Of a stretch of 64,000 bases of DNA, positions 20,776 to 63,000 are shown in pieces; position 1 is the first letter of the stretch; each line of letters begins with the position of its first letter. Source of the stretch: Haplodiscus bocki (taxonomy: Eukaryota); the NCBI GenBank assembly GCA_965655095.1, contig OZ296649.1, positions 61,752,001 to 61,816,000 of the forward strand. The letters run 5' to 3'. The translations under genes were made by a program, and so were the position numbers. A model generated the notes under the pieces. The model did no database searches, was not told the DNA's origin, and saw nothing but the letters and a program-made list of their open reading frames with translations.

Positions 20776-20816
20776 TATACACTCCTGGACTGACTATACT
20801 TTTAAAGTATAGATTC

Positions 20817-22770: not shown

Positions 22771-23827
22771 TTTATGATAGCTGCTCATACGACCGACCTG
22801 TTCAAGTATTGAAGGAGGGTATAGAGACAGGAAGCTGAGGAGGGTGTGGAACTATGTTTCACGGTAGGATGAATTTCAGCAATATATTAAAATAGGTTGC
22901 AGATTTCGGTGCTTATGGGAGTTTTACTTTATTTAAGTACTTGTTGATGAAGTTTTCTTCGCCGAAATTTTCAAAGAACAGGAACCAAGAAAATATATTT
23001 CCAAAAACAATGTGAAAAATGCACCAAAAAATGATGGAAATGGAACAACTAAAAGAAACAGTTACGCCTAAATACATTTACAGTTCATCACAAACGGAGG
23101 AACTTCATCCATTGCTCCTGGCTTCCAACAAAGACTCAACTCTTCAACCGTAGCAGCTGTTTCAGTCACTCGTCCGTCCGGTAAGTGATTTCTTTCAAAG
23201 AACGCAAAACTGACGCGTAACCCCTTCTTATTACTATCTGCCGATCATAATGAGGAGAATACAGGATGTTTGTCTGTTTTAGGTTGGTGATCTGATGTTT
23301 CACGATACTCAGTGGTCAATAGATACGTATCGAGAGTGTAGTTGAGTAATAAAGGAGCTGCTGGATCCACGTCCCATACAGTGCTAGGGTCCAGAAAGAC
23401 GTTAGAGGTAGGCTGCTCATCAAGAAAACAGCTATGTTGATCGTTACTAGGGATGAATTTGAGGTTTTCTCAGGATCTGGAAATAATTTCATGTTCCCGC
23501 TTGATGTGTTCAACTTTTCTAGGAGCTTCAGGGCAGAGAGTAATACCGCAATCAAAATCCACACAATGTTCTCATCAATGAAGTGCACGAAGTCATCGAG
23601 AGAAACAGTCTTCTTGAAATTATCACAATTCGATACAAGGTCTACTTCCGCGCTCAAAAGGGAATGAATTGTGAGCTTCGAGCAAACTTTATGCAAAAGT
23701 GACAAAATGCAAAAGTCAAATTTTTCTTTTTCGACAAAGGTTGAGCAGTGAATTCTGTTTGTAGACAGCTGATAGTGCGAAAAATCACCAGTGGTTAGGT
23801 ATGTTGGTAGGTGGAAGAAGCGCGTTA

Positions 23828-26601: not shown

Positions 26602-26639
26602 GGACCCCCATTCGAACAAAACTTTTTTCGATACAAAAA

Positions 26640-26955
26640 ACCCATTGCATTGGAGTGAACCCTATTCATTGGAGTATCTTAATACATTGCGCCATCTCGG
26701 GCACCTAGTCTCACAGTGCCGAAAAGCCCGAACCCTATCTTAATACATTGATGTAGTATACCCTATCTTGGGATGGTCTCGCAGTGCCGAAATGTCTCCA
26801 CCAGTGCCGTACAGCCCATCTTGGGGTGAACCCTATCTTAATACATTGGGGCATCTTATTACATTGAGGTAGTATAGGCTATCTTGGGGTTGTCTCACAG
26901 TCCCGAAAAATCTCACTGCCGAAAATCCCTTTCTTAATACATTGACCCAACGTAT
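26640..26955. repeat. Interleaved short repeats (cctatcttaatacattg; tctcacagtgccgaaa), probably the subterminal region of a DNA transposon
   Basis: About 5 copies of tatcttaatacattg and 3-4 of cagtgccgaaa. Confidence 0.6.
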
Positions 26956-27149
26956 TAACAGAGGAGCCAAGAAGCGGCTTCTTGGCCTGAACACCGGTTT
27001 TGAGCTCCATTCGGCTCTCGGATCGCTACACCCTACATTAATACGTGGAGGCGCCTCCACCCTCCCCCCGTCTGATCAGCTCACTCTGTTACTACTGGGT
27101 TCAGCTGAGGCACCAAGTGCAATAACTGGTTTTCATTCAAGCATACGCT

Positions 27150-36722: not shown

Positions 36723-37270
36723 AGTCTTCAATAGCCTTTATGGGCTCGATTGAAACAAGATACTCCCTAAGTCGACGTTTTAATTCTTCTTCTACTTGTA
36801 CTTCTTTTCACAGGTTTTGCGACATCGGGAGATTTTTTTGGACAACATGTAAATGATTATGGCACCAAATACTGTTCCCATTTCTGATTCAAAATGGGAT
36901 TTTTTTGGCTATATTCTTACTGCAAAAAATCCTGCGTGATTTTAACCTCCATGATTTTTTCTGCTCAACGGACAAGAAACATCTGAACCTTTCTCAATCA
37001 AATGGAAAACTTCAAGAGTTGACACTTGAAGATTCATTCAGATCCTGTTCATAGACTTCATTACGTTTTAGGGCTTCGAGCGAAACGAGAAAGTCCTAAT
37101 GTCGACGCTTTGTTCTTTCTTTGCTTTTTTAATTTTTGTTTCACCGTTTTGGTGACATCGGCAGAAGACTCTTTTGAAGGCACCTAAATTTTCGCGCCTA
37201 TAGCATTAAGCGGTGTACCATTTCCTGATTTCTTTTACATTTTTTGTCTACATTTTTTTGCAAAACTTCC

Positions 37271-41300: not shown

Positions 41301-42390
41301 AGTTTCGGTTTTGTTCCAGAAAACGAAGTCTGCCAAAAGTGACGAACTTATTCTAGTAGTAAAGAATTTCAAAAGCTATGTTTCTAAAACGATTTTTTAG
41401 GATAATTAAAAGAGATGAGTTAACTGCGTCTGAAGGTGTTTATTTAAACTGGGGGTAGAAACTCAGACTGGCAAATACGATACTACGTGCAATATGAAGA
41501 AAATATTGTCTGTTAAAGTAATTGTCGGCGTTAACCACGCGAAAAGTTGCAACAGACGGCAGCAATTTTGAGAGAAAGAGATAACTGATTCGAAAAGTAG
41601 TTTCACGTATTGACTGTAGCGAACAATGAAAATTTTTTGTACAGAAACAAATTGATTGTAGCGAACTAAACCTAATTGCCTGCAGCGATTAAGTGAGCAT
41701 GACAAAATTGGTTAAAGCACACATGAGGATACATTTTTTTCATAATTCAACAAAATTCTATGAAACGACGTTAAAGTTTCCAAAAACGAACTGCAAAACT
41801 GTCCTTCGTTCGAACTCGCCTTACTGTTGCGTTCAAACTGTTGTGATTTACAGCTCAATTGTTGTCAGAAACATCATAGGAAGTTTCAGAGACTCTCGAT
41901 GTTTGGGCAACAGTTAGGATCCCTGGAAACAAAATGAGAAACCTTCAAATCGTCTCCGACTAAAAAATTTTCTTTTTGCAGAATCTCAAATGCCCCACCT
42001 TAATTTCCCGAACATCAAAAACATCTCCCTGTTTGGGGCAAAGTTTCAACACCTCAGGCCCTCCATTTCAACTGCTGGTAAGTTCAACTTGCGCTTTTCA
42101 ATGAACGTAACTATCGTTACGAAATTTTTCTGCACTCTCATCTTACACCGGAAGAAAATGCCGCAAAGTGCATTTGCTGACTCTCTCTACTCTTTTGAGC
42201 CAGTGTTGTTGTTTTATCTTTTTCCTAAATTTTCCAAACCAAGGCTTTTCTCTTGAAGCTCGAGCTCACAGACGCTCAACTGTGACAACATCCCGAGGTC
42301 AACAACCTACTTGTTATTAAACTTGTTATTAAACTTATTAAATAGTTTTTCAGTTTATTGCATGCCAGAGGCAGCAGTTGTGGCCTCTTA

Positions 42391-43059: not shown

Positions 43060-43971
43060 ATGGTTAGAAAATGCAACACGTGTAAAAACAACATTGCTAC
43101 CTCGGAAAAAACCTATTGTTGCGTGGGCTGTAACCAGCACATGCATCTTACCACCGAATGCACAGCTCTCTCAAACGTTGCCATCAACGGAATCAAGGAA
43201 CTCGGTAACAATTGCATGCTCATGTGCAACACTTGTCTTGACAATGGAGAATGAGACGTGTTCATTAGATGCAGAGCACAAACGAAGGTCGAGTCCGTAA
43301 TCTCAGACTTGAAATGCGATGAAAAGCTCTCCAATCTGGAAAACAAGTTCTCCAAACTTGCCGACTCGAAACTTGCAAATCTAATTTCGAAGTCATGTGA
43401 CAAAATTGAACAAAACTATGCTAAAGTGACAGCCAAAACGCTCGAAAAAGCTGCCTCCGTGGTAACTTCCTCAAACTCCACAACAAAAGTGAAATCTGAA
43501 GATCTCAACATCTCAGCAAGCTTCAGAATACAAGGGATCGCTGAAGAGCCCGAGAAAACTGTCGATGAGAAACTTGTCCCAACCACCGAAAAAGTCAAAA
43601 ATATCCTACAATCCTTCAATGTCAATACCGAAATCACTTCAATGAAGCGACTTGGAAAATTTGACAAAACAAGAATCAAACCAAGGACCCTTCTTGTTAC
43701 GGTCCGGAATGAGTACGATAAGAAGCTAATCATGGCGAAGAGCGTGGAAAACAGCGAAGTCTTAACGGAGGAGTCCATCTACTTCCTTCCTGCATTATCA
43801 TTGGCTGACGTCATCAAAGAGAATCAAGTGCTGAAAATGAAAAGAGAACTTCTCGATGAAGGTGTTCCTCGTGAGAAACTAAAAATTCGCAACTTTGAAT
43901 TATTCAATGATGGTAAAAAGGTAGCGATGGATGCAACCGAGCTCCCTCCCAAGGAGCAAAGTTCATTTTGA
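43060..43971 (+). pseudogene. LINE-A ORF1 (PHD-like zinc finger, coiled coil, RRM-like region); premature stop 43252-43254
   Basis: CNTC..CVGC..H...C..CNTC; FRIQGIAE; RLGK..KPRTLLV; KLKIRN. Confidence 0.88.
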
Positions 43972-46820
43972 CTAGACAATGTAAGTGTACTACTTTTAAA
44001 CGCTCGAAGTCTTCTAAACTACGAACGTAGACTCAAACTCAGAAACGCCATTCTTGTCCAAAAGTATAACATAATCTGTATGACTGAAAGCTGGCTCACT
44101 TCAGACATTAACTCGGCGGAGCTCCTCATGAGTGACTTCACCATCTATCGGGCAGATAGACCCTCTACATCCGGCAAACCCTCTCCTCATGGTGGTGTGC
44201 TCATCGCCATGAGGAACACTTACTATTCTGAAGTCACTTTTGCCAATCTCTTCGAATGTTGCCTTCAATGCACAATAAGGATTTCAGGAAAAGACATTGT
44301 GATAAGGGTCTTCTACTGGCCCCGACATGGTAGCCCATACAGATACTCCACAGACGATTTCGTAAATCTGATCAGGGGAACCCCAAAAGGGAAACCAGTC
44401 ATAATCTGTGGTGACATCAATTTCCCCGACACAAACAGGGAAACTCGAACCAGCACCGACTCATTCGAACAAGCTGTGATTGAATTACTCGATGACCTAA
44501 TGTATGATCAATCGATCAATTTTCCCACCTGTGGCTCGCGAACTCTTGATGTTGCCTTTTTCTCCAACTGCACCGTAACAGCTGCGGTAGACGAGAACTT
44601 CAATGAGATTTACAACTGCTCAGATCACCTTGCCATCAGACTGACAATTGAGAGACTGACTTGTTCTGGAAAGATCTTCATAGAAAAATTCAGAAGTTTC
44701 GGGTCAGCCGACTTCAGCAACCTGCGTGACCACCTCTGACGGAACCCATTTCCCCCGCTTTTTTTGCAACATCGACAACACGTGCCTCGAACTATACCAG
44801 CATTTTGATCGAGCCATTGACAAGTTCGTCCCAACCCGGACGAGACATCGCCAGAATTCGCCCCCCTGGATAAACTTCAAATCTTCTCATCTGTTGAAGA
44901 AAATGCAAACCCAGAAAAGGTTACTAGCAGCTAAACCTACCATCTACAGGCGGAACAAAATAGTCGAACTAGAGAACCTAGTTTCCAAGCATGTGAAGAA
45001 GACAGAGTTCATTACCAGAGCTCATTACCAACTGTTCAACACGCGTGACACTGGTAGAATTTTCAAGCATTTAAAGTGTCTCAAAAAGACAGCCAGTCTT
45101 CCGTTATCAATGCACTTCAGAAGTGAAAGTACTCAAAGTGCCTTCAGAAGAGCGGAAATGTTCAACGAATACTTCCATTCAGTCTTCGCTCCAAAGGTGG
45201 ACTACAACTTGAACAACATCCCTGTGAGCAACGTTTCCCTAACAAATTTCAGCATTTCAAAAGCCAAATTACGGAGCACCATCTCTGATGTTGACGTAAG
45301 CAAAACGCGAGGCCCAAATGGCTATCCGCGTTCCTTCTTTGTTAATTCTGGCGAAGGTATGATTCATGCTCTTCATCTCTTGCTCAAAAACATAAAAAGG
45401 TTTCGAAAGATTCCCAAATGCTGGAAGCGCACTGTTGTTTCGCCCATTCATAAGAAAGGCGAAAAATTCCTCGTGGAAAACTATAGACCAATATCACTTC
45501 TAGAGATTGACAGCAAAATTCTAGAAAAATGCATGTATTCGCCACTCTACGAGCACTTTGAAACCTCCCTGAGCTCACGCCAACATGGTTTCGTTTGCCA
45601 GAAATCGACAATAACGAACATGCTCGCTTTCCTCCAAGCTGTCTACAAAGCCCTCGATAAGGATCAACACAGTGATGTCGTAGCTTTTAACACAGATTTC
45701 AGTAAGGCTTTCGACAAAGTATCCCATTACCTTCTGTTGTGCAAAGTAGCAAGGCTAGCCGTAAATGGTTGTTTGCTCGAACGTCTCCTTCATTATCTTT
45801 CCGACCGAAAGCAAATCGTGCGCGTTGACAACGTCACCTCTCGGCCAAAGGACGTAACTAGCGGTGTCCCCCAAAGGTCCCTCTTGGGACCACTTCTATT
45901 CTGTATTTTTATGAATGACCTCCCAGAAGCCCTAGCTTTCAGCGACTCATACTTTTTTGCAGATGACCTCAAATTTCTTTCCGTAAACCTAACAGAACTC
46001 CAAGTGCAAACCGATCTTCAATCACTTGAAATATGGGTAAATAAGAATCGAATGGCCCTAGCAACAGACAAATGTGCTAAACTGACATTCCGAGGGAAGG
46101 ACATAATTTTCAAACTCTTCGGAGAACCCCTGAAAACCGAAGCCAACGTAAGAGATCTAGGCATTACGTTGACCAGCGATCTCACGTGGAACATGCACAT
46201 ATCAAAAAAAGTAGCGAAAGCAAACGGTGTTCTCTACTTACTAAGAAGAAATGTCTCTCAATCTGTAGGTGCTCGAATCAAACTCGGACTCTATAAATCC
46301 CTAGTCTTACCCATTCTTCTCTATGGTATCCAGTGCATTCAACTGTCAAAAGCGTCAATGATCATCCTAGAAAAACTCCAGAAAAGAGCCGTTAAGTGGA
46401 TATGCGGAACAAGAAAATATGGACAACAACTTCGCTTTCTGAACATTCTGCCATTGCCTATGCGCATCCAAATTTTGAACCTGCTTACCTTGTCAAACTT
46501 TCGTACCAACTTTTGTACCAGCAACCCCACAACTGTGACTCTTTTACAGAGTCAAACTGCGCCCTCAAGAAGCAAAGAAGTCTTCAAGCTTCCCATAACT
46601 AGAACTGAAAAATCGAGGAACGAATTCGTGTTCAGAACTTCCCGTCTGGCAAACAGAGTAAACCAACATGCAAACTTCGAGGAACCTGTTGGATTGAAAA
46701 GACGTCTGACCAGGCTATTTTAGAGGGTCGTGGAAGCTACCTACGACGAACTCAACTCCTGCACCTGACTGAGTGCGTGCGACTGCCAGAACTGCAGGGA
46801 AAAGTGGACAATTTTCTAAA
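43972..46820 (+). pseudogene. LINE-A ORF2 (AP endonuclease + reverse transcriptase), frameshift ~44735 and late stops
   Basis: LNARS, TESWL, GGVLI, GDINFP, SDH; YRPISLL, QHGF, DFSKAFDKV, GVPQRSLLGPLLF, FADD. Confidence 0.92.
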
Positions 46821-46863
46821 CTCAACTCGGGATCAAACTCCCCTCAGTTTACTGTAAAGCCTC

Positions 46864-46901
<38 letters not shown>

Positions 46902-47040
46902 CTCTACGATAGGTCTCAAAAATCCCGCCGGTCCTACCGTGAAAAAATGAAGAACGTCTATGATTGAGAAAATTTTTTTTTAACTGACCACATAAATTTA
47001 AACCCCACGGCGCTGTCTGGTATCTGATCAGTACTTGAAA

Positions 47041-48450
47041 GGGAGACAGGAATAAGATATAATGGAATAAGATCTAATCGGGAAATTGGAATAAGATCTA
47101 ATGGAATAAGATCTAAAGGAAATCACCTTGAGAATAAGATCTAATGGAATAAGATCTAATGGAATAAGATCTAATGGAATAAGATCTGAAGGAATAAGAT
47201 CTAATGGATGAAATGTCTCACAATAGGACATTTTACTTTTCAAGAAAAACAAAATGAACGGCCAAAATCAACCAGCTCTTGAAATTTATCAAGCTCAATG
47301 GATTCATTGAAAAGCATTGAACGCAAAATTGTCAAGATATTACAAAAAATGTCAAAGTGAAACAAATTGAAAAAACGATAAGCTGGGGCACCATCAAGAT
47401 TAAAGCACTAAAAGACATGAAAATATCATTCAACTTCGTCAAAATGAATCGTTATTTTATTGGATATTCGGCATCCACATAATTGACAGTTATTTTTCTG
47501 AACACAGTTGGTAGAAATCATATGTCCGCATGAATGATTTGGTACATTAGGTAAATACCCTAATCGTATGTCCGCAGAAATTTGGATGACGGGCATCGAA
47601 CTTTCGCAACAGTCCCCAGTGAAAGCATTCGACCTCGGAATTAATTCGTCTGACACAGCTGTAGACGGATAGGAATCCCGAAGGTATTTTTTGAATCCAC
47701 TAATTCTCGATATAATTATAAAGCCAAACAACCTCATTACCCTTGCTTTTTGCCTTGATGTCAACCGTCGGTGCCAATGCGTGAAAACAGAGCTCTATTT
47801 TGTTTTCGGGAAGAAGAGGCAACGCCATCAGTTTTTTCAGCAATTTTAATGATTCTTGATCTTTACCAATGCTGAGTCTGGACCACTTTCTCCACAAAGC
47901 TTGACAATAAAGCAATAGACGTCCTTGCATTTGAGATTCGAAATTGAAATTGATTGACGGATAGAGGGCGGTTTCGAAATCGACAACACATTTGGTAGGC
48001 TTGAAGGTCGGGAAGAAATTTCGTATGGAAAGTAAAAGGGCATCGTACAGTTGTCGTAGCATGCAACGCCATGATACTCAGTTTTTTAATGAAAAGATTT
48101 AAAATGTTTGAACTGCTTTCCTTCTGTTCTTCGCAGTCCACAGATTGCGTGAATCCAAAGTCAACCTTGGGAAGAAGATGAGTCCGAAACCCGACATTGT
48201 TGAATCCAAAAGAACTGAAGAACCTGATTTTTATAATTCTGAATCAAGGGAATGGGACAGGTTTTGATTTCTGAACAGCTGAGTTACATCCTCTGCTCAT
48301 GTGGATTCCAAAGCCGTCGCTCTGAACAAGATCAGTATTTTTCGCAAGAACTGGAAGTTGGCAAACCGAATTCTTTAAATGAACTTCTAAGTGATGGCCT
48401 TCAACAGGTTTTTGGTCATAGTTTTGATATGGATGCCGGTTAAATTAAAA
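47041..48450 (-). mobile_element. Decayed Mutator-like (MULE) DNA transposon with 15-bp subterminal minisatellite
   Basis: CVVDFETAL...GRLLLYCQALWRK...LMALPLLP resembles the MULE DFExA..GCxFHxxQA motif; repeat block at the left end. Confidence 0.75.
47049..47208. repeat. 15-bp minisatellite ggaataagatctaat
   Basis: About 9 copies. Confidence 0.95.
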
Positions 48451-48699
48451 GTGCTCAAATTTTTGGAAAAAGTTTTTGTCATGCCAGATTAAATATTTTA
48501 CTGAAAAAACCAAAATATGCAAGAAAAATTCTACAGATACAGAAGAAATCATCGTATTAAGTTTTTGACACCCTAACGTGGACTCATTCGTCAGGTTGGT
48601 TTCTTATTTTTTCTCTGCTACTGCTTTAACACAAAAGTTTCGTCATTTTTGGAGGACGACCTTCGTACGTCCTCTCGCCAGGACATGTTACCGCTGCTC

Positions 48700-49852
48700 C
48701 AAAGATAACTATTAGCCTATCAGCTTCTTAGCCAATATATCCGTTTTAATCAAACCTTTTGTGTCCACGCCCCTTTAAGACAATGTATGTAAAGAACAAA
48801 CTCAACCCAAAACTATTTGGTGTTCAGTCGAAAAATGACTGCGCTGCAGCTCCGGAACTCTATCAAACAGAAAAAAATATAGACGTTAATCTCTCCTACA
48901 CAATTTTTCTGCACTACTCAATTGCTTCTGATTAGATGTTTTTCATAATTTTTACAAGCAAATTATCTAACTTTGGCATTGACGATGGCTTTTTAGACTT
49001 TCTCTGAGAGTCCTATCCCAGCAACCGCCTGCAAGTAGTATTTGTAAATGGTCTTCCGTCTGCTGGTGAAAACAATGTCAGCTGAGTCCCGCAACTTTCC
49101 GTACAAGAAAAACTCTTGTTTCTTCAGTGCATGAATGACTTACCAGCTCTAAACTTTGACTGCGGTCCAGGAATTTTTGCTGACGACCGCACTTTGATAC
49201 ACACTTCCATCAGTTCCATTAATGACTTGACAGTTCTTCACAATTAGAACCTGGTCAAAACAAAGACGGTAATGTATCAAATTTGAGAGTTTCGTTTCGT
49301 GAGGTTCCGATTCTGTTAACTGCGAACTCCGTTTTCTGGAGAATGCTAATGCATACAAAAAACTGAACGCAAAAAACACAAACATATTCGAGCGCGGAGA
49401 GACTTCCACAATTTGCAAATCGTGCGAGAACGAAAGTCATGCTCTACAATAGCTTATAACTGTCTTTTCTGCTATTTAGTTGCCAACTATGGGACCTATA
49501 AATTCGCGTTCAGGAGCTGGAACAACTTCAACTCTTCTGTGTAGACTGTGTTTTCGGCGAAGCGCAATACACCGAAATCCTGAAAACCAACAGTTGTTCC
49601 GCTCTCTCATGCTTTTGACTACGATGACATTCTTCATTTATTTTTCAGGTTTTTTCGAAACTGCGACACCTCCTTTTGCAATCCGCTATTTTACAGCTGA
49701 TAACAAAAAACGAAGTTTTATTAATCCCCTCTCTGCTAAACTTACTGTTCCTGTCTGTTTTTTTTTCAACTTGTTGATAGTTATGTTCTAATTGAATCCT
49801 GATCAGGGGTTACAAACCTCTCTCTCTCTTTCTGTCTCTCTCTCTTTGTCTC
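48700..49852 (+). mobile_element. Decayed CR1-like RT fragment followed by a (TC)n tract
   Basis: Remnants of GVPQ.., MNDLP and FADD at 49080-49190; (tc)n at 49818-49852. Confidence 0.6.
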
Positions 49853-50349
49853 AAGTACAATATACCCGTTGGACTGTGAAAAAAATTAGCAGGGCGTTGT
49901 GAGGTCAATAATATGGTGTAGATTGTGGGGCGCCGATCAAGTGGAGTGCAGCAGCTGGAATAGGTAGTTTGATAACTCTGGAAAAAGGCGTCCAACTCTA
50001 CTCTGCTTCAGTGTCTATATGTTGTATTGAGTTGCCAGACAACATTGAACCATGTATTCTGACATTTTTTTTTTCGATTTTAATTTGGGGTTTTTATATC
50101 TACCCCTATTTTTGAGAAGTGCTACAAGTGTGTCAGAAAAGTGTTCACCTGGCCCTCACGTGATGGACGCCAGAATAGGGACCGAATATGACGAAAAAGC
50201 AGTAGAAGAAGAAGTAGTAAAATTTAATATCTCTGATTAGAACCAAATACAAAGAAAACAATAACAAAATAATACAAATATGGTATAAACAGTCAATATT
50301 TGCAGATATATATTGTAAACAGCACCCTCTGAAGGGACCACCCAAAATA

Positions 50350-52905
50350 AAAAAAGCGGAAGCGAAAAAAGTGACAACGAATATTGAGCAATTTCACTGA
50401 CAAATTAAACTTTCAGTTTGATAATTTACTGTTACATGTTGTACGTGGTTCAATGTTTCATACTTGACTTTTTTGAAAAACTCAGCTGTCTCCGAACATG
50501 TTTCTATCAAGAAATTGAGTTGCTTTGCTTATCTTCAATGCAGAGGTTTAGGACTAACAGTCCAGGGCTAAATTAGCAAAAAAAATATGTTAAATAGAGC
50601 TTTTCAGTTTCAAATTTTCTATACTCGACGCTCATATAACCAGTTGAATTATCCATTTGCTAGACCAGTATAAACTGATTCAATAAAATATTTAAAAAGC
50701 TCAACAGTAGAATAGTCATATACATTTATTACATTTAATTTATAAAAAAGTCGTGCAGATGGATAAAAACGAACTCAAAAGAAAATTTGTCATAGTGCCT
50801 TTTTCTCTTTAAAAAATAGTTTTTCAACCTGTTTTTCGAAGTACAGCCAAAAATTACTAGACAATATCCTATAGACGGCCTTACATAATTTTTATAGTAC
50901 CAGAGAAGCGAAAGATTTTTAACATAGTGTCTTTATCGTGATAATACTGAATTTTGTCCTGACATTCTTTCAAACTAACTCAGCATTTGGAACTTAGAGT
51001 TTAAATGTGTATTGTTTAATTTGCCAAGAACTTATACACAATTACTTCGATCAATGCTGGAATATGATAAATGAATCTGCTCGCCGTGATAACTCAAAAA
51101 GTTTTGGTTCCTGTTTGATCGATATTTATAGCGAGTTTTTAGACAGATAATCGTTTCGGGATTTTTACCAAAAAATTATTCAGAAAAAAAACTGATCCTG
51201 ATTTTTACGATGAATAAAATTCGTGTCGGCAGCAAATGAAATTGGGTTGGGAAATTCACATGGACTTGGTAGATCCATGATGTCTATTACAGACAGTAGA
51301 AGCCCCAGAATTGAGCTTTGAGGTGCTCCTAGAAGCAGTTACAGAAAATCCCAAAGTACAACAGTCACACGAACACACTGGTTTCGTTCTTTTAAATATG
51401 ATTCAAACCACATTAAACATGAAAGCGGAAACTTTAAATATATTTTCAGAATCATCATATTTCTTACAAGAGAATCGCAGATTCACGAGAATAACACTGT
51501 GGTCAGTGAAACCGGCCTCAAGTGTACCACAGCCAAGGTTAAGGATGAAATGATTGTGGACTATATGATAAATTAGAGTTGCTGAATCAATAGCATTTCG
51601 TGTTGCAGTTGCTAGTAGTTGCGTCAATCCGTTATACTACAAAAAAGTGAAAATTACCACACAAATTGGTTTATTTCAAGATCAAAATTCATATCGCTTA
51701 CAATAGAAAGTGGGGAGGTCTCTAAATTGGTAATGTCAATTAGTAACAATTTAAGTTCCTTCAATATTAAGAAGTATCCAAAGGAGGAAGGGATGTACCT
51801 GCAAGCTGTTACAAAACACTGGTTGTTCTTCTTCGATGCTTTAAGGATTTTATTTCATGGGTTTGCTCTAGTGCATTCTACCTCATATTTGATGGCTTCT
51901 TTTACATAAACGATTACACCCGTCAACTCTACTGAATCCAGGGCGAAATATCAGAGGCAAGTTCTTGCTCAAGTGTAAACAGTGAAGTTAAGGTACATTT
52001 GATACCCATGCTCCCGATAAACATACAAGAGATGGCTCAAAAATGCCAAAAATTTTCAAATAGAGCTCTAAATTGTCAAAGTTTTTACTAAGTGGGCAAA
52101 AAATGACATGAAAAGTCCGATCATTGCCTTCTCGACTGGTTTCAATATGGTTGCTAAAAATTTTGTTTGGCTCATGTTTTCGTGCAGGATAAGTCGTTTT
52201 AATCGAGAAATGATTTACCGAAAAGGCCCAATCTCGCTGCATACAGAATCAGCAAAGTCGTCGTCTCAATTACGTAAATTAAGAAAATCATTAGAAATGT
52301 GCCTTTTATCGGTAAACATCGTAAAACTACCTTTCCATTGATTATATTAACAATTCCCACGTTGGAGAGCTGACAAAGGGATCTTGGTCATTTTTCCCGC
52401 ACTAGTGGTACACCGTCATTGATGACAATTTTCTTTTCATAACGCGAAGTTTTTTTTATTTCGGACAAAATGTGCATTTAATGGACGTGATCGTGGTATT
52501 CTGGAGGGTAGCCGATGACACACTGATATCTTGTTTGTATATCGTCACTCCGATATCGTTTGCCACCTCTACCACACGATCATACACATCTTCAATCTGC
52601 ACAACCCCAAAAATGCGGATGTTGTCATATGGACCACATTCGAATCCACAAAGTAAACTCGTAATGTCGGAGATATTTGATGGTGGCGATTTTTTGCACT
52701 CTTCAAAACCCGATGCAGCGCAAAAACCACAAAAAAAGGAGCGATCCATGAAGTTTCCTGTTATGAGCTTAGGCAACCATATTGAAGTCCACGCAACACA
52801 ATCTTCGCCGTCTGGACCAGTCCCAGTGCATTGAATGAGATTAATTAACCCATCATTATTGCGTTCGTCTGTCACAGAACTTAGCCGTGCTATGGTGGGC
52901 ATCTT
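50350..52905 (-). mobile_element. Decayed CR1-like LINE (ORF1 + EN + partial RT)
   Basis: ORF1 remnant with Cys cluster and NIRIFGV (52456..52902-), FTDH at ~51500, RP.. at ~50875 and PQG-region remnant at ~50560. Confidence 0.65.
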
Positions 52906-53646
52906 GCATAAATGATATGAAACTATTCAATAAGTTTATCCCAACAATGCCGTTCTGTCACTACCACAGACGCTCTGAACTGCAATAGGATGCACTTTTC
53001 TTTTCATTTCCACAGCCCTGAAAAGGAAAGACAGTCTTGACAAACTACCTCACTGCAAGGCTGTGAACATTCTTGGCCAAGGATGTCACATCTGCTGAAC
53101 AAGAGATAATTCAGGGTTCGAATATTGCTGGGGAACGTGTGTTTGTGCCTCAGGGATCAAGTCTGGGTCCACTCTTATTCTTGGTTTTTATCAACGACCT
53201 GCCAACCCAAGTATCGCACTCAAAAACATTCCTGTATGCCGATGATCTTAAACTTATTCATAACAACCTTCTAGAAATGCAAAATGATATTTAGCACTTT
53301 CTCAGTGGTCTCAGGTAAACAAATTATCATTCAATGCCAAAAAGACACAGCTCATTTCATTCGATTTTTGGTCTCAAAACTACATCACAGATATTCCAGT
53401 TCTTATCTTGGATGACCATGAGATATTTCTTCAAAAAAGCGTGGTTGATCTCGGTCTATCTTTTTAAAGCAACTTAGCTTGGTCAAAACACATATCCGAT
53501 CGTCTAAAAGCATGTTACATTAGAATTATATCCTTAAGAATACGTCTACCGCCACATTTACATAGCCAAATCAAGATCAAGTTGTATAAGACCTATATTT
53601 TAGAATAGAATAGAGTTTTATTGGATCAGTACAAACGACCAATCAA

Positions 53647-56199
53647 CTAAAAATAAAAGTTTCCCAAACTCCTTGCAGGGAAAATATTTGTCAACATGGC
53701 TTTCTGTGTATAGGGAGCTTTTGGCAACCTATTCTGAAGTTTATTCGTGGCGTAGTCACATCGCTTAGGCAGTATCTCATGCAGAATATGGCTTTCGTCA
53801 GAGGTCAATTTCCGCATAAGTTGAGAGTCCTTCTGAGCAATTAGGTCCTTCATTAGTGTATAAGTTGGTATGATATTCAGCCGCACACACCTTCTTTGCA
53901 ACTTGTCCAGTATCTCCAGCAGTCCTTTTGAGCAGCCACCCCAGACCACGCAACAGTAGCTTAATTTTGAAACAATTAAACTCTGGTAGATTACAACAAG
54001 ATCTTTTTGTGGATAACCCATGTGTTTCAATTTGTTCAGCAGGTAAATATCACCAGAAATTCTTTTTTGTAGCGATTTGACGTGATTCTGAAATGTCAGC
54101 TTGTCACCAAATACGACGCCCAAAATGCAGTTTTCATTGGAAGTGGCAATGGTACTGGGAGCAGGGCTGACATTAGTATACTGCAAAACCAAGCTTTTGG
54201 TTTTCTGCTGGTTAAGTATGAAGGTATGGTCCTGACACCAATGGTGAATATGGGAGAGCACCTCATCCGAGAAATCCTTGCCTTGTTTTCCACCACAAAC
54301 GGCATTCGCATCATCAGCGTACTTTATTGTTCTGCAATATTGCATCTCAAATGGTGGAACACTCAAATCGGCATAGCCAACATTGAAGCACACTGGTCCC
54401 AAAACAGTGCCCTGAGGCACACCGCAATTAATCTGAATGATTTCAGAAGTGTCATTCTGATTGCTGACAAATTGTTTTCGCCCATGAAGGAAAGAAGATA
54501 CCAAGTTGCACACTGCAATGGGAATGCCCGGAATTTTACGCATCTGCTGTAGCACAAAATGGTGGGGAATCCTGTCGAAGGCTTTGCTCAGGTCCACCGA
54601 CATAATCCTGGCATAATCGCAGCCATTGGCCTCAAGAACACGACACTCATGAAGTATTCGGAGGAGCGCATACTCAGTGGAGCTTTGCTGCCTGAATCCA
54701 AACTGTAGAGGTTCCAGCCATTTATTGTATGCTCTTTTGATATACTTGGTGTATATCAACCGTTCAAAATGTCTTGCCAGGATCGGCGTAACCGATATCG
54801 GGCGCAAATCGTCTAAAGAGGTCACTTTGCTCTTTTTTGGCAGTGCTCGGATTTTTGCTATTTTGAACAAATCAGGAAACATAGCTTGGCGCAAACACAG
54901 ATTATAGATATGCATCATTGGAAGGGCCAACACGTGAGCGTTGGAGCGGAAAACCCAGTAGGGAAGACCATCATGTCCGACAGCAGACTTCTTGAGATTG
55001 AGTAGCGAGTAATAGACTTCTTGAAGAGTAAACTCCAGTAATTCGTTGCTTTGAACCATTGTAGGACTGACGTAATTGTCAACAGTGGAGATGCTGGCAA
55101 AGTGTTTGTTGATGTCATTGGAATCGAAAAGACTTGTTTGGGTTTCCTTCGATTTTCCACGCTGTTCATTGATGATATTCCACCACTTTCTGGAACCGCG
55201 ATCTCCACGGTTTCTGCTGATATTGTTTCTAATCATTTCGGTAATTTGCTTGGTGATGCTTTCCGCCCTGCGAAAATTGCGCTTCCGGAAAAGCTTGTTA
55301 CGCTTTTTCAGCAAAAACTTGACGAGGGGACTGATATAAAAGGGGTCTTTTGTGCTCAGTTTGACAGTTCTAATGGGACAGAATTGATCGATCAAGATAT
55401 TTAGATCATCAAATAATAGCGATAGGGCCACATTGGGATCCTCGATCTGTTCTATATGGCTGAAATCACAAATGTCCATGGCCCTGTTAAACGAATCTTG
55501 GTTTCGGGGTCGCTGGTCTCTAAACGAGACAAGAGATTTAGCTACGGGCAGGCTAACCCTCGGGCTGGCAATTGTCGCAAGATGATCGCTTTTTGAGAGT
55601 GTTTTGAAGGAGCTTCCATCGTACTGGGCTGAACTACAATAGACATGGTCCAATTGGTGGCCACCCCTTGTTGATCCATGGTACAAGTCCGTTAGACCAA
55701 AGTCTTCAGCAACACATGAAAAATCAAAATCATTGAAATCACCGCATATGATTATTATGGCGTCGCCATAAACTGATAGGAGCTGCACGAGTGTATCAGA
55801 GATATAGGTGGCATATTCAGACTGACGACCAATCTTCGGGGGGTAGTAAAGCACCGCAAACAGAACTGTTGAAACAGCGACATGCTTAAGCCAGAGAACT
55901 TCATACTTGATTTTTGAGGGTACATGTAATTGTTCCAGATCAACAGAGTTCTTATAGAAGGCAGCAACGCCACCGCCTTTACTTTTGGTCGATGAGCAAT
56001 CGCTTCTGTCGTGCCTGCACAGCGAATAGTTCGGAATATACAATAATGAGGAATCGAAATCTGGGGTCAGCCAAGTTTCTGTGAGAAACACAATATCAAT
56101 TCTTTCGTTAACCAGATCACATGTCAACCTCTGTATTGCCTCTCGCTTTTTTATCGATCGAGCATTGAGTAACATTAGTTTCGGCAGCGCCAAGTCTAG
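53647..56199 (-). CDS. LINE-B ORF2p (AP endonuclease + reverse transcriptase), uninterrupted, in frame after the ORF1 TGA
   Basis: LNARS, TETWL, GGGVA, GDFN, SDH; LRPISVT, QFGF, DLSKAFD, GVPQGTVLGP, YADD. Confidence 0.95.
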   Translation of the reverse strand, partial: LDLALPKLMLLNARSIKKREAIQRLTCDLVNERIDIVFLTETWLTPDFDSSLLYIPNYSLCRHDRSDCSSTKSKGGGVAAFYKNSVDLEQLHVPSKIKYEVLWLKHVAVSTVLFAVLYYPPKIGRQSEYATYISDTLVQLLSVYGDAIIIICGDFNDFDFSCVAEDFGLTDLYHGSTRGGHQLDHVYCSSAQYDGSSFKTLSKSDHLATIASPRVSLPVAKSLVSFRDQRPRNQDSFNRAMDICDFSHIEQIEDPNVALSLLFDDLNILIDQFCPIRTVKLSTKDPFYISPLVKFLLKKRNKLFRKRNFRRAESITKQITEMIRNNISRNRGDRGSRKWWNIINEQRGKSKETQTSLFDSNDINKHFASISTVDNYVSPTMVQSNELLEFTLQEVYYSLLNLKKSAVGHDGLPYWVFRSNAHVLALPMMHIYNLCLRQAMFPDLFKIAKIRALPKKSKVTSLDDLRPISVTPILARHFERLIYTKYIKRAYNKWLEPLQFGFRQQSSTEYALLRILHECRVLEANGCDYARIMSVDLSKAFDRIPHHFVLQQMRKIPGIPIAVCNLVSSFLHGRKQFVSNQNDTSEIIQINCGVPQGTVLGPVCFNVGYADLSVPPFEMQYCRTIKYADDANAVCGGKQGKDFSDEVLSHIHHWCQDHTFILNQQKTKSLVLQYTNVSPAPSTIATSNENCILGVVFGDKLTFQNHVKSLQKRISGDIYLLNKLKHMGYPQKDLVVIYQSLIVSKLSYCCVVWGGCSKGLLEILDKLQRRCVRLNIIPTYTLMKDLIAQKDSQLMRKLTSDESHILHEILPKRCDYATNKLQNRLPKAPYTQKAMLTNIFPARSLGNFYF

Positions 56200-56994
56200 T
56201 CAGATTTGGTGCCAAGTGTCGTCAATTTTCTGCTCAAGATGCAAGTTGCGAATTCGCAGGAGCTTTTTGTCGGTGCCAGCCTCAATCAGTTCTTTCCTAC
56301 GCTTGAGGGCAATCTGTTCCATTTTGGATTCTTCAAAAGTGAGCTCATTTGAAACAAACAATTTTGTACCGTAACTTTTCAGCTTGCCGAGGGAAGCAAA
56401 TATTAGCCTTCTGTCCCAGGGATTTTGCACTGAGAACACCAGTGGTCTTGGTTTATTAGGCGTATCATTGCTCTTGCCTAATCGCCTCACATCAGTAACC
56501 TGGCAAGTGACATTGATGTGCTTTAGGAGGGCATCTACTGCACTCTTGTCACGTTCCAAACGCTCACTTTGAGATTGAACATCCGCTGGCTCAGGCAGTC
56601 CTCTTATTCTTATACCACGTTCTTGATGCGGTGGCTTGTGTGGTGGTGCGGACACTTTTTGGGGTCTAGGCATCTCCAAATTACCGTCGCTAGTCAGATC
56701 TTTCAGCGTTGAGACAATAGTCTTTATTTCTAGTACTTCGGTTTCAATTTTCTTAATCGTGTCAACTTTTGGATTCAAATTATCGTCTTTGCAAATGTCG
56801 CAGATGAAGAGAATGTTTTCTGAGTCTAGAAAGGCATAGATCTCACTTGGAAGTCGTGTACAGGTCAGATGATACCACCCAAGACAACCACAGCATTGAA
56901 TCCACTTTCCATTCTTCGCATTCCCAGTTTTCTTGCAGGCACAGCAGTCTTCTCCAGCTGACGTCGAGTCTCCCCGCAATCCTCGAGAAACCAT
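56200..56994 (-). CDS. LINE-B ORF1p (PHD finger + RRM-like domain), 264 aa
   Basis: CCACKK..WIQCCGCLGWYHLTC..FICDIC fits a C4HC3 PHD; IRIRGLPE; RRLGK..KPRPLV. Confidence 0.93.
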   Translation of the reverse strand: MVSRGLRGDSTSAGEDCCACKKTGNAKNGKWIQCCGCLGWYHLTCTRLPSEIYAFLDSENILFICDICKDDNLNPKVDTIKKIETEVLEIKTIVSTLKDLTSDGNLEMPRPQKVSAPPHKPPHQERGIRIRGLPEPADVQSQSERLERDKSAVDALLKHINVTCQVTDVRRLGKSNDTPNKPRPLVFSVQNPWDRRLIFASLGKLKSYGTKLFVSNELTFEESKMEQIALKRRKELIEAGTDKKLLRIRNLHLEQKIDDTWHQI

Positions 56995-57555
56995 TCAATC
57001 TATTTAATAAGTTTATCACAACAATTAGGCTGCCAAAATTACTTTACGGGTCACAAGTTTGGTCCCCGAACCAGAAAGACCTATCTAAATTAGAACAGTT
57101 CCAGAAAAACGTCTCAAAGTGGATATGCAAGGGTGCTACATACAAGACTAGGTTAATCGCGTCTGGTTTACTTCCTATAAATCTCCTGAAAATAAACGAT
57201 CTGCTATTTCTCAACCGAATCCTAAATGGCATGTACGATTTTGATTTTCATAACTTTTTATCGATCACATACCCCTGTGACAGTTTTTACTACAACAACA
57301 GATCTACCCTGAAGCCCGTTCTCAAGGTTAAATCAACTCGTACAAAGCAGGCCGACAATCACTTTCCAGCGAATTGTTCCCCTGTCAAACTGGTTGATGA
57401 AGGAGCACAATCTCGACTCTTTCGATGAGCCTAATATCTTGAAACCTCGAGTGAAACAGCTGTTCAAACGCTTTTTTGCATTAGATGAATATGTTTTATA
57501 ATTTTTAGTTTGCCATATTGTTTAATTTTTAGTCATTACGAAAAGTAATAAAGTC

Positions 57556-57603
<48 letters not shown>

Positions 57604-59010
57604 TAGGAAAATTGGGCTCGCTGTCGACATGTTTGGAGTGACTATTCATAGCGTTGAGAAATTCTTGTCGATTCTCGAAGCGTCGGAAAACAGAAGACTA
57701 GTCAAAGCGTCGGAAGTTTGGACAGTAAACCATTACATGCTTCAAAATTTTTAAGGCTTTGAATTGTGTGCAATTTTTCAACGCTTTGATTATTCGACCC
57801 TTTATTTTTTCGGCGCTTTGAGAATCCGTATTGTTTTGAGGCAATGAATAGCCACTAACGCTGGGAGATCGCAATGGTTTTGAAGCTTTCCTGTTGCTAT
57901 CGTTTCTTTGAAATGATTTTTGCTCTTGTTGTTACGGCTACGTCGCATATAATTTTGCTGTCATTTCAGATTTTTGTGGAACAATGTCTTATTACAAAGA
58001 ATTAAACATTGACAAAAATGCATCGGAGCAGGTAAGTTTTATCTTTGAATATTTAACTGTCCATTGTTGATTGAAATAATTTAGGCTTTAAACTGCCTTG
58101 GCCTTATTTTGTTGTTTTCTATTTATCCTCACGCCAATTGAAAACTTTATGAAGAAAGGCTAAATTTTGATGAAATAGCGCCACTAACAATCAACTCAAA
58201 ACAGTGTAGCAACCGAAATATCAGAGTTATATTAATATTAATGAACGATTCCTTGCTGAGAATACCCATGCTATGTTAGAGGATTTGCACACGTCTATTA
58301 CAGAACACTATATTCTTTCAGTTATAATAAAGAACTTTTACATTTCTGGAGGTAGTGTATTATAACATACATTAACGCATAAAAGTAAGTTTTGAATTTA
58401 TTCTGGCACATTATATAAAATTAAATCAGAAACGTATGCCGAGCACCAGAAAGAGACCCTCCTCTAGGCATACGCCTTATAGGATTGGATGCCTCTGTAA
58501 AAAAGTTAAACTTACTTAGATAGAGATTAAAAATAGTCTAAAGCGATATTCACTCTCAACATTTCTGGCTATACTTTGGCCTCTACGCTTTTGCGATAAA
58601 CATACCGAAATAATTACTGCTTGAGTTTGAAGTTAAACGTAGCGTGTTGTTTTCGGCGTGTCTGAATGTTACTCGGCAAAATCTTCCACAAGGCTACTAC
58701 TCTTTTTAAAAATTGTTTCTCATGTTACCAGAAATAAAATCAGACATATGCACGTTTTTAGTAATTTCTTGTTTTTTGATTCTTTGGTATCTCCTCATTT
58801 TTGAAAATTATATGTCTTGATTTCGTCTCCTTCAAATTGTTTTCTAATATTTTGACTTGCGACCTATTACAACAATCGAAATCCTCATATGGTAGAAACC
58901 TAACGCAGGTGCTAGCTATATGGGTGCGGTAAGAAGGACAGACTACGGCTTCCAGAAATTTTGAGACCAATTTTTTGTTGGGTTCTGGGAGGAGGGGAAA
59001 GTTGCAATGT

Positions 59011-59330
59011 AGAGAGAGAGAGAGAGAGGAAAGACTTAATTCTCATTTAGAGAAACCAAAATAGTATATAACATAAAAACAAGAAAACTTAAATAGAGCA
59101 ACTATTAAGAGATGCTTCTTGATTCACAACAGATCGTACAAGCACAGTTAATAAAAAATGAACAGCTAAAGTTCATGTTAAACCGTTTTTCAAGTAGATA
59201 ATGTTTCACTGAGTTTATGTCGTTATCGAAGAACCCGTTTATGATTCTATGACGCAAAAGATAGTTTGACATTGCTACTGCTCGGGGGAAGAATGTAGAT
59301 TCATGCGTAGTAGTAGTAAAGTCTTTAGGA
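59011..59330 (-). mobile_element. 3' end fragment of another CR1/L2 LINE with an (AG)n/(CT)n tract
   Basis: ESTFFPRAVAMSN...FFINCACTIC C-terminus typical of these ORF2s; microsatellite at 59011-59028. Confidence 0.55.
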
Positions 59331-59399
59331 GTCTGCTCCAGGGGCGTGAGCCCTTCGGTTAGTATTCGGCAAGAGTTCTTTCTGAGGGTTACAACTTCC

Positions 59400-62300
59400 A
59401 CAGGAGCATAACACTCTCCAAGTGCATGGGTCCAGGTCAGTGTAACACCGTAAGAAGTAATTTGTGTTAAGCTGCGTTACATATTCTTTGTTTAGGTCGC
59501 CTTGGCAGTTTTTTTGGACGATATTGATGTTTGAAGCACGAACCCAAAAGATCTAATCAGATTTCCTCAATCGTAGTTTTCGTATTACTATTTTAGGTGC
59601 TCGTCGAGTATCCTAGATGATGCTTGAGCATGGTATTTGACTCTGTATCGTACTTTCCATCCAGAATCGATAATAAAAGAAGCAGGTCATGTATTTCCAA
59701 GTACATGGAATGTGGCAGAATTTTCAGTGAGGTGCTTCTTTGTAGCCAACTGATTCTTGTTATTCATTTGGTAGCCTTTCTATGTACTTTCTCGATGTGT
59801 CGGATATCACTTATTGTTGGATACCAAGTTTCAAAGGCATATGTGAGGACTGGAACTATGTAGCCGATAAAACCACTCAGTTTTGTTAGTGTCGTAGCTT
59901 TGGAGGACTTGTTGCGTTTAAGGAAATGAAACTGTCGCCAAGCCTTGATGATGCGGCGTTCACATTTTTCACTCCATCTCAAGTTTCTTAAGATCATGAC
60001 GCCTAAGTCCTTCTGACAATTTACAATTTGGATTTGACCGTTAACATCGGATTGAACAGGATGATTCCTTTACTGCACTGAATCTTGCTTTTGCCGAGAT
60101 TTAGGTTCATGTGATTGTCTTTCCTCCTTTTTTCAAATTCGCTTGCAAAGTTATTTGCATCTTTGAGTGTTTGTGTGATGACTTTAAAATTGTCAGCATA
60201 GCCATGTACACTCCCAGTGTCGACTACACGCGGAAGATCATTCACATAAACTACGAACATGAGCGGTCCAAGAATGGAGCCCTGCGAGACCCCACGCGTG
60301 ATCAACGGTTCCGTTGAAACTTTCTCCAAACCTAACTCTTTGGACCCTGTTTGTTGCGTGGTTTGCCAGAAGTTTCAACTTCCCACCAATTCCAAAATTG
60401 TGCAATTTGGCTCTTAGTTTTTCGTGAGCTACTTTGTCAAAAGCTTTGGAAAAGTCAATGTGAAGCGTGTGTATTTCTAGCTAGTCTGGGTTTTCCATTC
60501 GGTTGTGAAGGTCATTCAAGTAAAACAGTAGTTGCAGGACATCTGATCGTCTTTAGCGGAAATAAAATTGTGCCGGGTGCAGCATCTCCTTAATGTGGTG
60601 ATAAAGATGATTGAACACGCTCAAGGACTTCGAAAACATTTGCTAGTGAGCTGAATGGCCTATACTGTGCATTTTTTTGCTATGTCCCCTTCCTTGTGGA
60701 TTGGAGTAACATGACTCTTTTCACTGGGTGGGGTAGATAACTCTGTTTAGGGAAGTTTGAAAGATGAGTCTCAACGATTTCGCCAAACTTACGCATTTTT
60801 TAGGATGATATTGCCGATGTTGTCGTGACCGCAGGCTTTCCTTGCTTCCGGGGATATGAGGACTTTTTGACTTTCTTTTTCGCCAAATCTAAGAAAGTTG
60901 AGTTCTGTCAAGGTATAGTCGCTTGCTTCAGAGGAAAGTTTGCGCTCCGAGAAGACGCTGCTGAGGAATTTAATAAATTGTTCATTTATATCTTTGTCAT
61001 CAAATGCTTTGGTGCTGTTGGTTCCTTCAACCAAAAACATTTCGTTCGGTAGCTGTCCGTTCTTATGCAGCGATTTAAGGTATATTTGCAGCTCCCCATT
61101 CGCCTGTTGGCAGAGACTTTCTCTTCAAAAGCGGTTTTATCGTCCAGAAGCTTGGCCGCGAATACTTTTTTTGCTCTGATAATTTTGATTAATAGCGACA
61201 GCTTTTTGTTCTCGTATTTGGCGTTCCATCTGATGAGAGGTCCCTGTTGTGACCCAGGGGGATGGGAGTTTCAACGATGTTGCGTGATTTTCAGGAAGTG
61301 TCGGAAAATGAGATCGTTCAATATGTACCATTGCCTTATAGTCTCGTTTACATTGCTCTGACAGTATGGTCGGAACGGTCTCTCGAGTATGTGCTGGTTA
61401 AACGTTTCCCAGTCTATCTTTTCGAACGCATATTCCATTTTGGGAGGTAGGTTACCAAATTTTGTTCCGGAGTAGATTGTGGTTCGATAAGCGTGTTGAT
61501 GTGAGCAGCTTTTGCCCCCGATTGAGTAGGCCTTCTCCGTTGTCAAGTCTACTGTCGCGTTTTCAGCAGCTTTGGGATGTTTGGTGAGAATTATATCTAA
61601 GTTTCCCTTGCGCGTGCAGGGCAATTATTGGATGAGTCCCAGGCATTGGAGATGTTCTAGGATCGTTGATTCATGTAGATCATCGGATGTGTTGCTTTCC
61701 CAGGTTGTTTTGAGAAAACTTAGATCTCCCGTAATTCTAATCGGATCGGCTTTCAGTTTGCTGAGTTTCTCCGGCTGTTGATCCAACTGGGAAGCGTTTA
61801 CCCAATAGGGACTGCCTTCAGCTGGTTATAAGTACAACAAATGACTATTCGGGAATTTTTGGTGAGAATCTCGATGGTTACGCATTCAACTTGGGTATCT
61901 ATTTGTAAGCTGTTCTGTCTGAAGTCTCTAATAGCAACCAAGACCCCATCATGTTTGGTGTTCAGATCGCTGGAGCGGTCTCGGTGTATGATGCATTCGG
62001 GTGCGAATAGGGCTCGATCAGGAATTTCGGATGTGAGACATGATTCACTGAGACAGATGATATCAGAATCGGCTGTTGCTATCTGGTTTGCAAGGAAAAG
62101 GCGTCGTTTGATGTCGATTAGGCTCCTCACGTTCATAGTGGGGAACTTAGTTTTTGTCTTTGTTGTTAGTCATTGTTGGGGTGGGTTTGGATTCCCATCC
62201 ACGTTTGTCCATTTGTCGTTCTCCTTCTGTTTGAGTTTCAACTTGCGTATCCGAAGTTTTCTTTGCTTCAGTGCCGTTGTTTATCATGTCTTTTCAATTC

Positions 62301-63000
62301 ATGATTGCTTCGTTTTCAAGTTTTTGTTCATCCGGTGTCAGCTCTCGACTGAAGTAAACTCTATGCTCATAGGTAGCCAGTTTTTGCGCTGATGGAAGCA
62401 TGAACCGACGATGCCCCTGATTTGCCAGTTTGAGAATGATTGTGCGGTGGTTCTAGTTTTCTTTCTCGTACGTGGCCTTTCTCCCGATATCGTCAGTTTT
62501 GACGTCTTTGTTTTTCAGATGAGTCAGAATGGACTCAACGGCCTTGACGTCTTGTTCGAATCGTTCCCTGCCTTTTCGACAGATGAGCTCAGGAATACCA
62601 CGAAGTCTGATAGCATCGTATGATTCCGGAGGTCCTTTTTGTCTGCTTTGCGTTTTACTTCTGTCTTCTTGAGCTGCAGGTTCGACAGGAAAGACTTTTT
62701 CTGCTTAACTTCAGCTTGGAGTGATGCCATCTGCTCCTTTAGCTCGAACACAGTGTTTGCGATCACAAATGTGGGCATCTTGCTTTTCCTCATGTTCTTC
62801 TAAGACCTGTTCGATTTGATAAGCTTGTGTTGTCCAATCGTGATGGTACTCTGCGTCACTACTCTGTAGCCAAAACGCTAGAAACTGTAATTCATGAGAC
62901 TTTCCCTTCATTTTACCTTTACTGAATTTAAGAATAAGATCGAAAGTTTTTTTCTGGTCTTTCACTTTGGGTGCTTGTCGTCTCTTTTTCCGGGTTTGAG
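59400..63000 (-). mobile_element. Decayed near full-length CR1/L2 LINE (LINE-C)
   Basis: ORF1 end KLRIRKLKL..PPQQ* at 62170; MNVRS, LSESCL, DGVLVA; KACGHDNI; GVSQGSILGPLMF..VNDLP..YADN. Confidence 0.85.

Follow-up and report, generated by a model that had tools for sequence, protein, structure and literature searches.

The window analysed here is a stretch of 64,000 nucleotides (nt) from Haplodiscus bocki (contig OZ296649.1 of GenBank assembly GCA_965655095.1, positions 61,752,001 to 61,816,000 of the forward strand), and it carries three long interspersed nuclear elements (LINEs), designated LINE-A, LINE-B and LINE-C, in each of which the first open reading frame (ORF1) meets the second (ORF2) in frame through the codons TGA-CTA. 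Judged from their sequences, the three are APE-type non-LTR (long terminal repeat) retrotransposons of the CR1/L2 group. Their ORF2 consists of an APE endonuclease followed by a reverse transcriptase (RT), as recognized by Pfam and by profile and fold matches to the L1 endonuclease (in LINE-C, from tblastn remnants); direct repeats of LTR length are absent around the elements, and the tails are (CAA)13 in LINE-A and AATAAA plus a short repeat in LINE-B. From motifs, we take LINE-A and LINE-C to be CR1-like and LINE-B to be L2/Crack-like. Look-alikes of LINE-B carry PF09004, and the Atlas look-alikes of the elements are eukaryotic, with animal phyla the commonest.

Three LINEs and their junctions

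43060..43968, + strand: LINE-A ORF1, with a PHD-like finger, a coiled coil and an L1-type RRM/CTD; copy-specific TGA at 43252-43254
43969..43975, + strand: LINE-A junction TGA-CTA-G, a candidate readthrough site, predicted through as W-L-D in P0171 and P0095; situated where a low-confidence linker joining two folded domains ends
43972..44739, + strand: LINE-A ORF2, APE endonuclease part (Pfam Exo_endo_phos 4e-9); first ATG at 44080, in the second strand of the fold; copy-specific TGA at 44737
44744..46723, + strand: LINE-A ORF2 beyond a frameshift, comprising the RT and C-terminal part; ends in TAG (Pfam RVT_1 7e-27)
46863..46902, + strand: LINE-A 3' tail, (CAA)13
57000..57023, - strand: LINE-B 5' end, an AT-rich leader of ~23 nt whose last two letters are AG, 5 nt ahead of the ORF1 ATG; boundary taken from the interrupted host element
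56203..56994, - strand: LINE-B ORF1, intact, 264 amino acids (aa), PHD plus RRM/CTD (Pfam PHD 8.5e-6)
56196..56202, - strand: LINE-B junction TGA-CTA-G, a candidate readthrough site
53647..56199, - strand: LINE-B ORF2, intact, 850 codons, endonuclease plus RT (Pfam RVT_1 5e-26, Exo_endo_phos 9e-11); first ATG at 56175
53600..53646, - strand: LINE-B short 3' untranslated region, with AATAAA and a short TTCTA-repeat tail
62173..62632, - strand: LINE-C ORF1 remnant (RRM/CTD part), interrupted by stops and, near 62265, by a frameshift (tblastn of LINE-B ORF1: 32% over 125 aa, E 4e-14)
62167..62172, - strand: LINE-C junction TGA-CTA
59692..62169, - strand: LINE-C ORF2 remnants (endonuclease, RT), with many stops and frameshifts (tblastn pieces)

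The junctions read TTT TGA CTA GAC in LINE-A (43969, +), ATC TGA CTA GAC in LINE-B (56202, -) and CAA TGA CTA ACA in LINE-C (62172, -), exactly as the original prediction from this DNA had given them, and the continuity of frame without a spacer that it described holds at all three, LINE-C being heavily decayed. LINE-B (53600-57023, -) is intact and consists of 264 codons, TGA, 850 codons and TAG in a single frame. In 8/9 other listed copies of LINE-B ORF1 the reading frame ends at the identical residue (the remaining copy is frameshifted earlier), so the junction stop is a trait of the family. Family B is young and multi-copy. Its ORF1 and ORF2 fall in a single 99-member cluster; no sequence bridging the two is found among the 15 cluster members listed, and the cluster is not used as evidence here.

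In LINE-A, ORF1 and the endonuclease share one frame, and the TGAs at 43252 and 44737 represent damage to this copy, because the sister protein P0171 has Arg and Cys, respectively, at these positions; a frameshift near 44740-44765 lies just after the second of them. The LINE-A endonuclease aligns to the L1 endonuclease from residue 6 (Foldseek 5e-8). In an AlphaFold model of LINE-A (mean pLDDT 72, pTM 0.49) a linker of low confidence leads from the well-folded RRM/CTD to the endonuclease and has the junction at its end, and the first Met is reached only after strand 1 and helix 1. The ATG in question (44080) does lie downstream of the conserved LNARS strand, as had been predicted, and the family members P0171 and P0095 have Ile at that position. 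A target-site duplication of LINE-A was looked for and not found. In the decayed LINE-C, most of ORF1 is in another frame and the last ~32 codons are in the frame of the TGA; these codons carry the conserved ORF1 C-terminal motif and are in frame with the start of the endonuclease.

The three elements had been called unrelated, and no blastn match was found in any pairwise comparison of them. The wording is nonetheless too strong, because their ORF1s are homologous, at 30-32% identity; the ORF2s of LINE-A and LINE-B are 23% identical. Sequence comparison thus points to LINE-A, LINE-B and LINE-C being distant relatives through ORF1. Within the ORFs of the three elements CTA accounts for 42/2331 codons (1.8%) and for 16% of the Leu codons, and the chance of finding it at 3/3 junctions would be ~6e-6 from the codon frequency and 0.004 on the assumption that a Leu is required. 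Because the three share a common ancestry, these figures measure retention through deep divergence and not the outcome of independent draws.

A PHD finger is present in 24/40 aligned ORF1s, and the ORF1 family profile matches the Pygopus PHD and the L1 ORF1p structure 2yko (E 1.7e-5); a PDB search with a single sequence gave 0 matches, and the profile searches gave these. An ORF1 with PHD plus transposase-22 domains corresponds to type IIC of Metcalfe and Casane 2014, which is described as present in both the CR1 and the L2 lineages (PMC4120745). Like the elements of that class, the window LINEs combine an ORF1 of PHD, coiled coil and L1-type RRM/CTD with an ORF2 of APE endonuclease and RT and a simple-repeat tail, and in both cases one type of ORF1 is paired with very different ORF2s. 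They differ in that an in-frame stop junction is not described for type IIC in the excerpted text of PMC4120745, where "stop codon" and "fused" have 0 occurrences, and in that the ORF2 of the window LINEs and their relatives mostly lacks a start codon of its own.

LINE-B is nested within an older CR1-like element of the opposite strand (53037-53599 and 57024-57365, +), whose RT reading resumes beyond the insertion, with no more than ~3 nt in common at the break. In the window the LINE-B leader is matched 3 times, where 0.13 matches would be expected. Leader-like copies are found at 52923-52945 (-), before an unrelated ORF at 52926-52456, and, partly duplicated, at 42309-42353 (+), ~700 nt upstream of LINE-A ORF1. 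By its sequence this leader resembles a trans-spliced leader that retroposed RNAs would have brought with them, and we list it as a candidate.

The junction in related proteins

A profile built from the end of ORF1, the stop and the start of the endonuclease matched 2323 proteins at E 0.001 or better, and the best 150 of these, 149 of them non-self, were examined. By an automatic test, 25/149 contain both the ORF1 end and the endonuclease start; 24 of them are readable at the junction, and P0068 is frameshifted. Four junctions (P0084, P0091, P0150 and P0146) were added by eye and P0171 came from a separate search, for a total of 29. Among these 29 relatives predicted across the junction (28 from the best 150 of 2323, plus P0171), the residues at the position of the stop and the following codon are W-L in 16, W-Q in 3, C-L in 4, R-L in 3 and S-L in 3. 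The first residue is in 29/29 cases what would be expected of TGA read as Trp or of a codon one base from TGA, and the second residue can in each case be specified by a codon beginning with C. In 6/28 cases a close relative consisting of ORF1 only ends exactly at the junction position.

The same tendency emerges from a blind rule applied to 26 aligned matches, in which the last Trp within 25 residues ahead of a conserved Asn column was taken without regard to what follows it. Such a Trp is present in 18/26, and the next residue is Leu in 14, Gln in 3 and Asn in 1, as compared to a background of 34/308 (11%) for Leu after other Trp residues (binomial p 8e-11). The 28 rows of the junction alignment form 20-23 groups at 45-50% identity, with a median identity of 28%, and the junction relatives are spread over all three main branches of ORF1 in a tree of 113 sequences (support values not considered). 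As far as protein sequences can tell, a junction of a stop followed by Leu recurs in ~20 divergent lineages with this type of ORF1. Conservation of the stop context across families had been named beforehand as a test of the original prediction, and it was found, at the protein level only, with 14/18 Leu by the blind rule across the 20-23 groups. The three families with Gln after the junction Trp (P0073, P0118 and P0148) are compatible with TGA-CAR, likewise a context known to be leaky. Among 99 other matches with a complete ORF1 end, six have tails of >32 residues: P0146, which has a W-L junction, P0157, and four without Trp.

The Asn column of the relatives aligns to N14 of the L1 endonuclease, an active-site Asn. 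No Met occurs between the junction and this column in 19/26 relatives, and one is present in 7/26. Reinitiation at an AUG therefore cannot be general, because 19/26 relatives have no Met ahead of the active-site Asn of the endonuclease. An AUG that overlaps or follows the ORF1 stop and lies ahead of the whole endonuclease is absent in LINE-A and in the same 19/26, and in LINE-B and LINE-C the AUG is inside strand 1. The latter two had been credited with an ATG just before the endonuclease motif; the ATGs are indeed there (56175 and 62136), but they lie inside the first strand rather than ahead of it, 3 and 1 residues before the Asn, respectively. The junction Leu is found 8-19 residues ahead of the Asn, and because this distance varies the position of the Leu is not dictated by the fold.

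Probable readthrough and its alternatives

The explanation that we consider best, and to which we would assign a probability of roughly 0.7 on sequence grounds, is programmed readthrough of the alphavirus type at UGA-CUA, giving a minor ORF1-ORF2 fusion. Most ribosomes would stop at the UGA of ORF1 and release ORF1p, whereas a few percent would insert an amino acid at the UGA (in UGA-CUA or, in some families, the UGA-CAR variant), pass through a short variable linker and continue into the endonuclease and RT, so that an ORF1p-ORF2p fusion would be made at the low ORF2:ORF1 ratio that a LINE particle needs. Since no protease is visible in the element, the fusion probably stays joined, and it could anchor the enzyme to the ORF1p coat of its own RNA. 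The proposal that these CR1/L2-group LINEs make a fusion by readthrough is thus supported by a junction that recurs in ~20 lineages, most of them without an AUG ahead of the active-site strand, the fusion itself being inferred.

UGA-CUA and UGA-CGG are known as the type II readthrough motif (PMC3159437), and the precedent on which the proposal was based is borne out for the alphavirus sites and for mammalian AQP4 and MDH1 (PMC3159437, PMC13517186, PMC4132726). LINE-A and LINE-B match the UGA CUA GAC of o'nyong-nyong virus and LINE-C matches the UGA CUA AC of Sindbis virus (PMC13517186, Table 1). Readthrough is reported at 1.5% with UGA-CUA alone and at 3.5-31% for UGA-CUAG genes (PMC4132726). 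The LINE junctions thus share UGA-CUA(G) with the type II sites of alphavirus nsP3/nsP4 and of mammalian AQP4, OPRL1, MAPK10 and MDH1, and in the alphaviruses, as in the LINEs, a polymerase lies in frame downstream. The LINE junctions differ in that an extended 3' stem-loop was not detected, the carrier is a non-LTR retrotransposon, and no protease is visible that would cut the product. A 3' stem-loop is frequent at sites of type II readthrough and is not obligatory. The 3' structure of alphaviruses lifts readthrough 3- to 14-fold and is not needed for a low level of it (PMC3159437).

Several observations weigh against readthrough or limit the case for it. LINE-B, LINE-C and 7/26 relatives carry a Met shortly before the Asn. 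The relatives are known as proteins only, in which the Leu may stand for any one of its six codons and the Trp for TGG; the codon after the stop was read directly only in LINE-A, LINE-B and LINE-C, and that the Leu of the relatives is likewise CTA is presumed. Fused proteins reveal in-frame junctions only, and the ~120 matches consisting of ORF1 only do not show the sequence after the stop. The junctions without W were chosen by eye, the W-Q of P0157 sits in a tail that is not endonuclease, and a G at +7 is impossible in 14/25 of the X-L junctions. The search profile itself held W-L, which is worth at most 3.4 bits for Leu; without this bias only 1/14 matches would fall below the cut-off for listing, and because the bias is so small, the list would also have taken in proteins with a residue other than Leu after the W. 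A full-length natural ORF1-ORF2 fusion was not found in two weak searches: the one with LINE-B ORF1 gave none, and the one with the ORF1 profile retrieved a truncated family-A protein of 604 aa. Finally, the search for a downstream stem-loop that the original prediction called for gave none, either locally, where z-scores range from +1.7 to -2.3 with only the first 60 nt of LINE-C below -2, or at long range, where stems in the single sequences are no better than at random positions of ORF2.

DNA of the relatives was sought in two scans of genome contigs for stray eukaryotic ones. The first yielded 0/44 candidates; the second yielded 3 RT loci among 29 candidates, two of them short (1.2 and 1.7 kb) and the third without ORF2 or ORF1 upstream. 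Three bacterial genome bins (L001, L002 and L003) contain contigs with LINE-like RT, which are probably eukaryotic contamination.

The rival that survives best, though we regard it as unlikely, is termination followed by reinitiation without an AUG, in which the ribosome terminates at the UGA and begins again at the Leu codon next to it, giving free ORF2p. ORF2 of L1 is reportedly, in work by Alisch in 2006, tolerant of the loss of its AUG, and the stop lies directly ahead of a complete endonuclease, as the model of the fold suggests. In L1 and SART1, moreover, ORF2 depends on translation of ORF1 and is thought to be reached by reinitiation (PMC2881922, PMC5972666). The codon in 3/3 window elements is CTA, however, which is two mismatches away from AUG, is not CTG, and would make a poor start. 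Restarting on the Leu codon would also leave unexplained the choice of UGA as the stop, the kept frame, and the alternative Gln, whose codons likewise begin with C.

Reinitiation at an AUG in the usual manner of L1 or SART1, with the in-frame TGA-CTA as an inherited relic, seems to us improbable as a general account, although it may contribute in B-like families: an ATG follows the stop by 24 nt in LINE-B and by 33 nt in LINE-C, and a Met precedes the Asn column in 7/26 relatives. Family A and the other 19/26 lack a usable ATG, the ATGs of LINE-B and LINE-C fall inside strand 1, and the residues ahead of the LINE-B Met resemble those of the relatives P0151 and P0146. A relic, moreover, would not outlast the loss of all DNA similarity.

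Quite improbable, to our minds, would be release at the level of RNA, with TGACTAG serving as a cis- or trans-splice acceptor (for a spliced leader, for instance) that yields a message for ORF2 only. LINE-A reads TTTTGACTAG and LINE-B TCTGACTAG, both of which are acceptor-like, and the short AG-ending leader of LINE-B with its two further copies in the window, itself a candidate, would fit leader trans-splicing in the host. Against this, LINE-C has no AG at its junction, the 14/25 X-L junctions mentioned above have a next residue whose codon cannot begin with G, the first AUG after the AG in LINE-A lies in another frame, with TAA after it, and a Met ahead of the Asn is missing from 19/26 relatives, while the leader supplies no ATG.

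That the host reads TGA as Trp (or selenocysteine) in single-ORF elements, or that the TGA is copy-specific decay of one ORF, is hardly credible: Trp does occupy the junction in many database relatives, but the intact LINE-B has 12 TGG and 0 TGA in 1114 sense codons, which largely refutes reassignment, P0046 has Trp at an off-frame TGA of LINE-A, so that the Trp of the relatives is best explained by table-4 gene calls, every LINE-B copy that reaches the junction stops there, and Rfam, including SECIS, has 0 matches in the window.

If UGA readthrough is indeed the mechanism, it would add a further way in which LINEs make ORF2, parallel to the gag-pol strategy of retroviruses. How ORF2 is made from a bicistronic LINE RNA is a long-open question that has been answered only for L1 and SART1, in both cases by reinitiation. 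Readthrough is known from a few LTR elements (SIRE1, Kamikaze and Skipper), and retroviruses such as murine leukemia virus (MuLV) encode a protease. As in MuLV gag-pol, an abundant RNA-coating protein would be accompanied by a rare fusion that carries the RT; MuLV has UAG-G with a pseudoknot, in contrast to the window LINEs, which show neither pseudoknot nor protease. With L1 and SART1 the window LINEs share a bicistronic RNA, and a low level of ORF2 that depends on ORF1 translation is described for L1 and SART1 (PMC2881922, PMC5972666, PMC3708506). Reviews do present reinitiation as the route to ORF2 in both L1 and SART1 (PMC2881922, PMC5972666, PMC3708506, PMC5009743), in keeping with the original prediction. 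In L1 this takes place across a spacer and in SART1 at a UAAUG stop-start, whereas the window LINEs have no spacer and no overlapping AUG, the frame is kept, and the predicted product is a fusion. Recoding by 2A StopGo is known in CR1, L2, Crack, Rex1 and Ingi elements (Odon 2013, PMC3708506). There, too, a virus-like recoding signal lies just ahead of the endonuclease in the same LINE clades, but 2A splits one ORF in two, whereas here a stop would be bridged; the 2A motif D(V/I)ExNPGP was not seen by eye in the 28 alignment rows or in LINE-C. Full-text searches of the literature listed no paper that, judged by its title and the start of its abstract, describes readthrough in a LINE; subscription journals, Repbase reports and supplements lie outside the scope of that search.

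We would put at slightly better than even the broader proposition that a wide lineage of LINEs with a PHD-type ORF1 makes its ORF2 mainly as a covalent ORF1p-ORF2p fusion through virus-type UGA-CUA/CAA readthrough, a gag-pol strategy without a protease, which could enforce cis-preference because the enzyme would be tethered to the ORF1p trimer. The cassette of ORF1 plus junction appears to have stayed with ORF1 across very different RT lineages. These families would then be mis-annotated wherever gene callers start ORF2 inside the endonuclease or take the stop for damage. LINE-B, which is intact, young and multi-copy, is suited to a direct test.

Other features of the window

Elsewhere in the window, three long overlapping ORFs (329, 459 and 198 aa) at 9081-11819 (-) have no Pfam match above the cut-off. 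Remnants of an LTR element, Gag-like and aspartic-protease, occupy 13712-15542 (+), and a copy of 300 nt lies at 8139-8438. The interval 35224-36727 (-) holds an RT ORF of another type (Pfam RVT_1 3e-11), probably from a different non-LTR clade. Very long inverted repeats, nested and with arms of up to 1338 nt at 95-98%, lie at 1-4170 and 17020-27097, which suggests foldback elements, large DNA transposons or a feature of the assembly.

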